Made by a program: the position numbers and the translations under genes. Of a stretch of 64,000 nucleotides of DNA, positions 7,621-8,573 are shown in pieces. Source of the stretch: a virus. Below the pieces are notes generated by a model. It had not been told where the DNA came from. It saw only the letters and a program-made list of their open reading frames with translations, and did not search any database. Each line of letters opens with the position of its first letter. Positions within the stretch are counted from its first letter, which is position 1. The stretch spans positions 1 to 64,000 of IMG/VR virus record IMGVR_UViG_3300047552_000145. One strand, given 5' to 3'.

Positions 7621-8164
7621 GAAAAACGAGTGGTGGGTTACTCCAGTTTGGGAGATTGACACTGGTCTTTCTTCAGACTATAATGCTCGCTTACTCTATG
7701 ATTTAAAGACTTTTGGAAAGAAGTCTTACAACATATGGAATGAAGATATTCCCTCACTTGGACCATTGAAAGCCAAGGTTATTGAAGCGTTGAGTAATAC
7801 AGTCAAGGATTATTTCCCCGATTATTATCCTTACAATCCAGTCATCTATAATGGTTGGGTGCAGTTTCATAAAACTGGCGAGATGCTTCACGTTCATGAC
7901 CATGGTGGTGTAATCGTCGCTTGTGTCTATTATGTTAAGGCACCAGAGGACAGCGGGGATCTTTTATTAATAGATCCTAGAGGAAGCGTTAATTGGGACT
8001 GGGAAACTGATGGGATTGATGGTGCCAAATATAAACGTGTTAAACCGAAAGAAGGTAAATTGGTTATCTTCCCAGGATATGTTATGCACGCAGTAGATCC
8101 GAACAACTCTAAAGATGAGCGGGTCAGTATCGCCATAAATATTCATAACCATATAAATACTTGA
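7610..8164 (+). CDS. 2OG-Fe(II) oxygenase-like (TIGR02466-type cupin)
   Basis: Start at ATG7610 (MEYKKNEWWVTPVW); HVHDH, VYYV, DPR, FPGYVMHAV, RVSIA motifs. Confidence 0.85.
   Translation: MEYKKNEWWVTPVWEIDTGLSSDYNARLLYDLKTFGKKSYNIWNEDIPSLGPLKAKVIEALSNTVKDYFPDYYPYNPVIYNGWVQFHKTGEMLHVHDHGGVIVACVYYVKAPEDSGDLLLIDPRGSVNWDWETDGIDGAKYKRVKPKEGKLVIFPGYVMHAVDPNNSKDERVSIAINIHNHINT
8152..8159 (+). promoter_or_regulatory. T4-type late (gp55) promoter
   Basis: Exact TATAAATA about 28 nt upstream of the Cys-rich peptide gene; SD GAGG before ATG8187. Confidence 0.7.
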
Positions 8165-8186
8165 GATATACATCAAAGAGGTCAAC

Positions 8187-8573
8187 ATGACAACCCCAGC
8201 ATCAGGACAAATAGCCATTAGCGATCTTATCGCAAACCAAGGTAACTTGGGATATGCTAATGCATTAAGTTGGTTAGATTCCAACACAAAAGATAGTGTC
8301 AGCGATTTAAACTCTGCTCATAGCAGAGCAACATATCAACGTAACGTTGATGGTAACTGTAATAATGGTAACTGTACTGAGTCTGGCGCAAATTGTGGTA
8401 ACATTAATTGTGTGAACTGTTTGAATTGTAACACTATTAATTGCACCAACTGCGATACTCGAGAGTGGATGCAAGGTAACTGTAACTGCGCTTGTACATA
8501 TAACTGCACCCAAAACACTCGTTCATATAACTGTAACTGCGACTGTCTAGTTTGCGCTTGCGCTTGCTGGTAA
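8187..8573 (+). CDS. Cys/Asn-rich peptide, putative radical-SAM-modified (RiPP-like) substrate
   Basis: 57-aa Cys-free N-terminus, then 18 Cys in the last 71 aa (13 as Asn-Cys); directly upstream of an rSAM/SPASM gene. Confidence 0.8.
   Translation: MTTPASGQIAISDLIANQGNLGYANALSWLDSNTKDSVSDLNSAHSRATYQRNVDGNCNNGNCTESGANCGNINCVNCLNCNTINCTNCDTREWMQGNCNCACTYNCTQNTRSYNCNCDCLVCACACW

Follow-up and report, generated by a model that had tools for sequence, protein, structure and literature searches.

Two pairs of proteins are precedents for the cross-linking of whole proteins by radical S-adenosylmethionine (SAM) enzymes with a SPASM domain (PMC13692751). In Methanococcus voltae, CrpC, which holds three [4Fe-4S] clusters, puts ranthionine thioethers into the Cys-rich protein CrpA, and QhpD forms Cys-Asp/Glu thioethers within the small Cys-rich subunit QhpC, a Trp of which is acted on by a flavoprotein (QhpG in NCBIfam). 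The enzymes NxxcB and PapB make radical beta-thioethers between Cys and Asn or Asp in the short NxxC and CxxxD motifs of the peptides NxxcA and PapA, Asn being the beta-thioether acceptor in the case of NxxcB (PMC9389541). Among phage proteins of host recognition, gp38 of T2- and S16-type phages (PDB entry 6f45) is small and modular, with an N-terminal helical bundle that docks, according to its authors, on the tip of the trimeric gp37 fibre, and a C-terminal part that combines a conserved low-complexity scaffold with variable loops (PMC6851490). Here we analyse a viral locus with likenesses to each of these systems. It lies in a stretch of 64,000 nucleotides (nt) from IMG/VR record IMGVR_UViG_3300047552_000145 (positions 1 to 64,000; hereafter the window), and its central element is a gene at 8187-8573 on the plus strand that encodes a Cys- and Asn-rich protein, P0001, beside the gene of a SPASM radical SAM enzyme, P0002. 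The reading we consider best supported, and hold with somewhat better than even confidence, is that P0001 is a late, fibre-associated protein cross-linked by the radical SAM enzyme rather than a classic precursor peptide.

The CrpC/CrpA pair resembles P0002/P0001, as proposed here, in that the substrate of the SPASM radical SAM enzyme is a neighbouring Cys-rich protein and not a short peptide. It differs in being archaeal and cellular, and in having no virion context, halogenase or N-domain. The words 'phage' and 'viral' do not occur in the text of PMC13692751. The Qhp system offers a parallel to an enzyme of the flavoprotein type acting on a Trp of the same Cys-rich substrate, but no dehydrogenase subunit is present here, and the matches of P0002 and of the flavoprotein P0004 to the Qhp families are far below the respective cut-offs. 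NxxcA and PapA are short, exported peptides with leaders, whereas P0001 is a 128-residue phage protein with 18 Cys. In P0001 the scaffold is rich in Cys and Asn where that of gp38 is polyglycine, its gene is next to a fibre gene in some relatives but not in the window, and gp38 needs no modifying enzyme. No description of such a radical SAM/Cys-rich system in a virus was found in the literature searched.

P0001 has the N-terminus MTTPASGQIAISDL and the C-terminus CACACW. All of its 18 Cys are confined to positions 58-127, and a script counted 24 Asn and 13 Asn-Cys dipeptides. Motifs built on N and C begin at 60 (NGNC), 72 (NINC), 98 and 115 (NCNC), 100 (NCAC) and 117 (NCDC), CxxC motifs at 75, 78, 86 and 120, and CxC motifs at 99, 101, 116, 118, 123 and 125. 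An earlier sequence-only reading of this DNA had listed the Cys, the Asn-Cys pairs, the motifs and the terminal Trp, and all that it described was recovered at the positions it gave. The genome examined is one contig of 81,266 bases, on which P0001 is the sole Cys-rich real open reading frame (ORF), which makes it the sole candidate substrate of the radical SAM enzyme. A search of P0001 against Pfam returned 0 families at E ≤ 0.01 (GP38 and Peptidase_S74 included), and Pfam, PHROG and NCBIfam together gave no family match, metallothioneins included. Neither megablast of positions 6000-14000 against annotated phages nor a low-complexity-filtered tblastn search of phages with P0001 found a match, and a protein atlas search returned unnamed viral clusters only.

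P0002 scores 31.8 against the SPASM family TIGR04085 (cut-off: 27). It carries the CX3CX2C motif as CNYTCDYC at residue 73 and CVKCPVLHLCKGSC at residue 375; its best named NCBIfam matches are PapB, geopeptide maturase, CcpM, QhpD and anSME, and among solved structures the nearest chains were 8vpo_A (E 1e-10) and 5wgg_A (E 2e-6). To assemble loci, IMG/VR was scanned for relatives of P0001, of which 146 were confirmed and the best 80 kept, and neighbours were counted by tblastn of the window neighbours against these 80 loci. The DNA contigs carrying the sequence derive from freshwater or aquatic metagenomes. The radical SAM enzyme adjoins the substrate gene in 79 of the 80 viral loci, and the sole miss (L035) is on a contig that ends 156 nt past the gene. 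The reverse search, with the enzyme as bait, gave 562 relatives, of which the best 80 were kept, many on the same contigs; a hidden Markov model (HMM) found an ORF with the P0001 N-domain in 72 of these and a divergent one was present in 4 more (76/80), while 3 of the remaining 4 loci are cut by a contig end. The gene pairing is strict, and the system is real and widespread. Among 185,579 prokaryotic genomes (one per species) only 6 loci were found (Paraburkholderia, Polynucleobacter and four metagenome-assembled genomes), which makes the family essentially viral.

Homologues of P0002 that are 43-45% identical lie in the fibre modules of two cultured phages, Ralstonia phage RSP15 and Achromobacter phage JWF. 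The JWF protein gp028 is a tail fibre with gp36-like repeats whose C-terminus consists of NCNCDCNCNCS and then a Hint domain, and the annotated record places the JWF radical SAM enzyme, which shares 44% identity with P0002, two genes past it. JWF differs from the window in bearing a short NC ladder on a long fibre and in having no N-domain (E 0.061), halogenase or oxygenase. No description of JWF gp028-gp030 as a system was found in the literature searched. In RSP15, ORF048 (L081:2431-3303), annotated as a side tail fiber protein, ends ..NTNCQCGN and is followed three genes downstream by the 45%-identical radical SAM enzyme; it may represent a pared-down form of this arrangement.

Comparison of residues 1-55 of P0001 (the N-domain) points to tail fibres. 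A profile of 44 N-domain sequences was run against 1.84 billion representatives and matched 733 clusters at E ≤ 1e-3, of which 72 reach E ≤ 1e-10. Among the 142 new matches listed, 112 have at least 120 residues, and these comprise 67 NC-rich and 39 essentially Cys-free proteins. When 10 Cys-free or Cys-poor matches were scanned, 2 carried Gly_rich_2 and 1 a fibrinogen-C-type domain. A word-index search of residues 1-57 against longer proteins scored nothing, whereas the full HMM search did find relatives. Through one Cys-free member we reached three cultured phages, Vibrio phage BUCT194, Alteromonas phage AD45-P1 and Pseudomonas phage Cygsa01, whose small ORFs start MTLPSTGPISF.., MGLPSTGAISL.. 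and MPLPASGAIAF.. and match the N-domain HMM at E 5e-12, 7e-10 and 3e-11, respectively. Each of these small ORFs overlaps the stop codon of a gene whose large product has a Peptidase_S74 (S74, PF13884) domain as its C-terminus; for two of the three phages the annotation names this product a tail fibre. The same arrangement recurs in the metagenomic loci whose Cys-rich protein is either a short form not ending in Trp or a Hint-fused form (classes described below): a gene ending in an S74 chaperone of the AYSDxRLK type lies directly upstream in 10 of 11, with a stop that abuts or runs into the start of the gene for the Cys-rich protein. The upstream gene of the eleventh (L028) encodes a fibre-like protein with GNVTG repeats, and all seven upstream fibre ends submitted to Pfam matched PF13884 above the cut-off. 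The resemblance of the P0001 N-terminus to small proteins behind S74 fibres, which the sequence-only reading had pointed out, holds in the profile search, the cultured phages and the metagenomic loci. The N-domain is modular, and it supplies a testable rule by which many phages can be searched for the tip proteins that belong to S74-type fibres.

Structure prediction adds a lead on this domain. In an AlphaFold2 model of P0001, residues 1-55 form three short helices with a predicted local distance difference test (pLDDT) score of about 76, and the Cys core stays below 50. Compared with 48,161 PDB representatives, the model gave one chain at Z ≥ 2, that of the S16 gp38 adhesin (6f45_D), a weak match at Z 2.4 with a root-mean-square deviation of 2.2 Å over 42 residues (model 2-50 on chain 2-46). 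The matched part is, by the account of its authors, the helical bundle with which gp38 docks on the gp37 trimer (PMC6851490). A PDB profile search with the N-domain returned chance rows only (E ≥ 0.3), and Foldseek against BFVD gave one significant row, an uncharacterised homologue, with rows named Gp38 at E 5-10. The prediction of a three-copy complex of P0001 scored 0.02 against a mark of 0.42, which speaks neither for nor against trimerisation.

A word-index search for homologues yielded 151 proteins at E ≤ 0.01 from 155 candidates, most of about 130 residues. As a measure of conservation of the Cys/Asn core, mean column entropy over 102 aligned homologues is 1.19 bits for residues 56-128 vs 1.89 bits for residues 1-55, and the 37 core positions that are neither Cys nor Asn average 1.72 bits. 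Variation within the core sits in short patches (64-68, 76, 79-83, 91-93, 108-112 and 121-122), between which NC, D90, Q96 and Y105 are near-invariant, as are the Asn residues that precede most Cys (N57, N62, N85, N88, N100, N106 and N115).

The 80 loci differ in what follows this core. Short forms that end in Trp, as P0001 does, make up 21 loci, and short forms that end otherwise (e.g. ..DGGGG) make up 8. An S74 domain stands directly behind CFW, CAC or CLF in 3 (L008 and L078 among them), a self-cleaving Hint domain closes the protein in another 3, and the remaining 45 carry an unassigned C-domain of about 170 residues that starts SKIIC (e.g. L007:5584-6105, L013 and L036). PF13884 was likewise found at the C-terminus, directly behind the Cys ladder, in 16 of the 120 homologues listed, and the Ser...Lys pair (SDDxLK) is visible in S74-fused homologue sequences. 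P0001 differs from these proteins in that it lacks S74 and finishes at the point where cleavage of the fused forms would fall. The C-domain of about 170 residues was modelled as all-helical (pLDDT 84) with a long, hydrophobic last helix. It had no Pfam match, a PDB profile search found none, and Foldseek gave none at E ≤ 0.001; the best rows of the VIA fold search were NEL E3-ligase domains at Z 7.5, 6.8, 5.4 and 4.9, which is below trust level for helical proteins. On the tree of the radical SAM enzyme the S74 form L078 nests within the helical-domain clade, so C-terminal modules have been exchanged. This suggests that the C-terminal modules of the relatives are interchangeable, removable parts, in which case the mature end would be the Cys ladder, exactly where P0001 stops. 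A separate N-domain protein of about 366 residues (L128:305-1402) has a long Gly-rich region in place of the Cys core and adjoins a radical SAM homologue.

The region upstream of P0001 contains the sequence TATAAATA, which the sequence-only reading had called an exact T4 late promoter. It is present once in the window, both strands counted, where 4.25 +/- 2.0 copies are expected and 98 of 100 shuffles hold at least one; the single copy is not above chance, and the match alone proves nothing. ATAAATA is not enriched across the window either (19 found vs 16.65 +/- 3.96 expected). What stands is the position of the motif, which is conserved among relatives. In 61 distinct 70-nt upstream regions from the 80 loci (duplicates and genes with <70 nt upstream removed), ATAAATA occurs in 35, and in 32 of them at -39..-27 from the ATG, where the loci's own plus-strand frequency predicts only 0.15 regions; the full TATAAATA occurs in 22 of the 61. 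The motif is retained where the substrate gene comes after the enzyme gene, either in the short spacer or within the end of the enzyme gene, and the loci without it are those in which the gene abuts that of the enzyme (4-5 nt) or lies behind an S74 fibre gene. In the window, NATAAATA stands with the same geometry 33-37 nt 5' of the structural gene starts at 24102, 52831 and 61876. Late expression of P0001 is therefore well supported by comparison of upstream sequences. The window has a single perfect 12/12 sigma-70 consensus (TTGACA, 17 nt, TATAAT), which falls within the oxygenase ORF at 7656-7684 (+); it was rejected as a promoter of the cluster since it is not conserved in the closest relatives, L001-L003.

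The terminal Trp of P0001 co-distributes with a halogenase gene. By its matches, P0004 is a genuine tryptophan halogenase: comparison with solved halogenases gave E-values of about 1e-58 to 1e-60 (PrnA: 7.6e-58), and GGGTAG at residue 8, GIKF at 75, WVWRIP at 207 and EPLE at 276 are intact, the family motifs named GxGxxG, Lys-containing motif and WxWxIP being among them. Weak NCBIfam matches to QhpG, LodB and GoxB, maturases of Trp/Lys-quinone cofactors, were found at E 1e-8 to 1e-11, far below the cut-offs (41.6 vs 240 for NF049967), and a QhpG/LodB-type Trp hydroxylase was rejected in view of halogenase matches of about 1e-58 to 1e-95. For the count against the Trp end, 2 loci with cut ends were removed and FW before an S74 cut was taken as Trp. 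A halogenase gene is nearby in 18 of 21 Trp-ending loci vs 0 of 57 others; the 3 Trp-ending loci without one lie at cut contig ends, where no more than 1.1-2.7 kb remains on the side concerned, and where both flanks reach at least 4 kb the figures are 12/12 and 0/29. Four further S74 forms with FW|SDD in the enzyme-anchored sample also have the halogenase. Elsewhere in the window, between the fibre and neck genes, a second tryptophan halogenase of full length (540 residues, 60223-61845, +; phrog_2928, E 1e-152) is encoded, and NATAAATA at 61841 lies just 5' of the following gene.

We read P0001 as fibre-associated and not as an exported precursor because of the promoter position, the N-domain/S74 context, the S74 and Hint fusions, the arrangement in JWF and the co-occurrence of Trp and halogenase. 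The N-terminal 55 residues would be a docking module that most likely attaches P0001 to a fibre. The C-terminal 73 residues would form a conserved Cys/Asn scaffold serving as the dedicated substrate of the adjacent enzyme, with which its gene is paired. Judging from its enzyme class, P0002 most likely installs several Cys thioether links of the ranthionine type, possibly to Asn, in the cytoplasm, which would yield a redox-proof knot. In this sub-lineage the compact halogenase P0004 probably halogenates the C-terminal Trp128, and the B12-type radical SAM enzyme and the 2-oxoglutarate (2OG) oxygenases may add further modifications. Relatives with an S74, Hint or third C-domain would expose the same C-terminal end through self-cleavage, and P0001 simply stops there. 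We hypothesise that the thioether-linked product sits in the virion on the fibre and binds a receptor as an adhesin.

Several observations weigh against this reading. In the window, the P0001 gene is about 16 kb from the baseplate/fibre block, amid phoH, nuclease and oxygenase genes, and has no S74 neighbour. The Cys core is conserved and not hypervariable, unlike a receptor-contacting tip; the adhesin proposed in the sequence-only reading thus keeps its fibre association, and the hypervariable NC-rich part predicted with it was not seen, the core being more conserved than the N-domain. The CxxC/CxC spacing fits metal binding equally well. [quoted passage not shown] The gp38-like match lies within noise and is a lead only, and a search of the N-domain for an internal three-fold repeat (offsets 16 and 30) scored 4.8 vs 1.3 +/- 1.5 in shuffles with a maximum of 8.7, which is not significant. 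P0002 is far below every curated family cut-off (PapB, its best match, 79.9 vs 340; CcpM 70.1 vs 500; QhpD, TIGR03906, 61.8 vs 453; anSME 53.5 vs 349), so its chemistry may differ from that proposed. On a tree of 77 enzyme sequences the Trp end and the halogenase each change twice and the changes coincide (sign test p = 1), which leaves only one or two independent contrasts for the link between them, and one short form ending CNCNC without a terminal Trp (L130:5606-5986) nevertheless has a halogenase nearby. The idea of a halogenated terminal Trp, also advanced from the sequence alone, accordingly gains the co-distribution in its favour and has these coinciding transitions and this exception against it. 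The literature searched, with supplementary files outside reach, gave no proteomic or structural datum that places a family member in a virion, and virion proteomics for JWF and AD45-P1 was not found in its accessible part.

Some of these points suit an alternative in which P0001 is a late protein outside the virion, for example a fibre-assembly factor or a membrane-directed protein of lysis or superinfection exclusion, and is associated with fibres by co-regulation only. The confidently modelled helical domain with its hydrophobic last helix and the location of the P0001 gene outside the structural block would both fit such a role, and T4 gp38 is an assembly factor and not an adhesin (PMC6851490). 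S74-ended fibres, however, bring their own chaperone, Cys-free members of the family carry lectin-like C-domains, and the nesting of the S74-fused L078 within the helical-domain clade suggests that the C-terminal modules can be interchanged and removed. We consider a non-virion role unlikely.

In a second alternative the Cys ligate metal, as in a metallothionein-like or Fe-S protein, and the radical SAM enzyme either has another substrate or helps to load or mature the site. The positions of the CxxC and CxC motifs and the unfolded core of the AlphaFold2 monomer are in keeping with it, and the authors of the CrpA study propose that modified CrpA may bind metals (PMC13692751). Ligation does not explain the near-invariant Asn before most Cys, though, and the near-obligate pairing with an enzyme of the peptide-maturase type, the fibre-type S74/Hint contexts and the failure of metallothionein families to match all argue against it, which makes metal binding quite improbable as the main role.

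Least probable, in our judgement, is a classic ribosomally synthesised peptide with post-translational modification (RiPP), with the N-domain as a leader recognised by the radical SAM enzyme and the Cys-rich core released at lysis as a bioactive toxin, signal or anti-competitor: the leader-like and core-like layout, the strict pairing with a RiPP-maturase-type SPASM enzyme, the further tailoring enzymes clustered with P0001 and the engagement of its substrate by CrpC through N-terminal domains (PMC13692751) would suit it, but the N-domain heads 39 of the 112 full-length matches listed that have essentially no Cys, its genes in the cultured phages follow fibre genes with no radical SAM enzyme annotated in the stretch inspected, JWF-type substrates do without it, the self-cleaving domains of relatives stand at the C-terminus and not at a leader-core junction, and no leader protease or exporter was found among the 9 neighbouring proteins scanned against Pfam.

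Returning to a fibre-associated P0001, a wider picture may be drawn, which we put forward tentatively as possible rather than probable. Phages would run plug-in fibre tips, in which an N-domain of about 55 residues docks interchangeable small tip proteins on fibres after the S74 chaperone leaves. One widespread type of tip would be a mini-protein built by natural-product chemistry, with many radical-SAM thioethers replacing disulfides because the virion is assembled in the reducing cytoplasm; the lineage of the window would add a halogenated C-terminal Trp and hydroxylation or methylation. To our knowledge, virion proteins mature by folding, proteolysis and autocatalytic links, and not by way of radical SAM enzymes. 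If real, the cross-linking and halogenation of a host-recognition protein by enzymes would add a new layer to phage biology; no virion protein before the plug-in tip would have been matured by enzymes of the RiPP type, and no viral halogenase would have had a biological role before. It would also explain what the genes for tryptophan halogenase, 2OG oxygenase and radical SAM enzymes do in aquatic T4-like phages, tie infectivity to the host supply of iron-sulfur, SAM, B12 and halide, and offer compact, redox-proof binding scaffolds. Such genes are listed as auxiliary or 'antibiotic synthesis' in aquatic T4-like phages, and in one cyanophage paper a 'radical SAM maturase' appears only as an antibiotic-synthesis gene (PMC12801897).

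The features of the P0001 locus are collected in Table 1. Genes for PhoH and a PD-(D/E)XK nuclease precede the first oxygenase, and from there the order 5' to 3' is that of the table.

Table 1. Features of the P0001 locus, in window coordinates; fractions give the share of the 80 viral loci in which a neighbour was found.
Feature	Position	Strand	Basis or remark
2OG-Fe(II) oxygenase A	7520-8164	+	TTG start at 7520, in-frame ATG at 7610; PF13759, E 6e-20; TIGR02466 above cut-off; 56/80
T4-type late-promoter-like motif TATAAATA	8152-8159	+	35 nt 5' of the P0001 ATG
Shine-Dalgarno-like AAAGAGG	8175-8181	+	5 nt 5' of the P0001 ATG; good ribosome-binding site, read from the sequence
P0001, N-domain, residues 1-55, proposed fibre-docking part	8187-8351	+	common to small phage proteins behind S74-ended tail fibres
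P0001, Cys/Asn-rich core, residues 56-128, proposed substrate region of the SPASM radical SAM enzyme	8352-8570	+	18 Cys, 13 NC pairs
P0001, codon of C-terminal Trp128, proposed halogenase target	8568-8570	+	Trp/halogenase co-distribution in relatives
P0002, SPASM radical SAM enzyme, constant partner	8589-10031	+	PF04055; TIGR04085 SPASM above cut-off
208-residue protein	10032-10658	+	no Pfam, PHROG or NCBIfam match; 4/80
P0004, compact flavin-dependent tryptophan halogenase, 396 residues	10661-11851	+	PF04820, E 1.7e-95; 19/80
B12-binding-type radical SAM enzyme, accessory	11851-13347	+	PF04055, E 5e-16; B12 radical SAM NCBIfam models below cut-offs; 14/80
2OG-Fe(II) oxygenase B, accessory	13344-13994	+	PF13759; 21/80

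By PHROG matches the window belongs to a T4-like myovirus: the matches include, for the baseplate, a tail-tube cap, a hub like gp5 and wedge subunits (gp6-like ones among them), as well as several fibre proteins and, at 61876-63504, proteins of the neck. The N-domain profile, run against the whole contig, matched P0001 and no second copy, in line with the earlier remark that neither S74 gene here has a neighbour of this kind; P0001 itself is not beside a fibre gene. A gene at 54570-55022 (+) encodes a 150-residue protein that is nearly all S74-type fibre C-terminus (PHROG fibre families, residues ~16-148), and cleavage of its product would leave a mature part of a few dozen residues.

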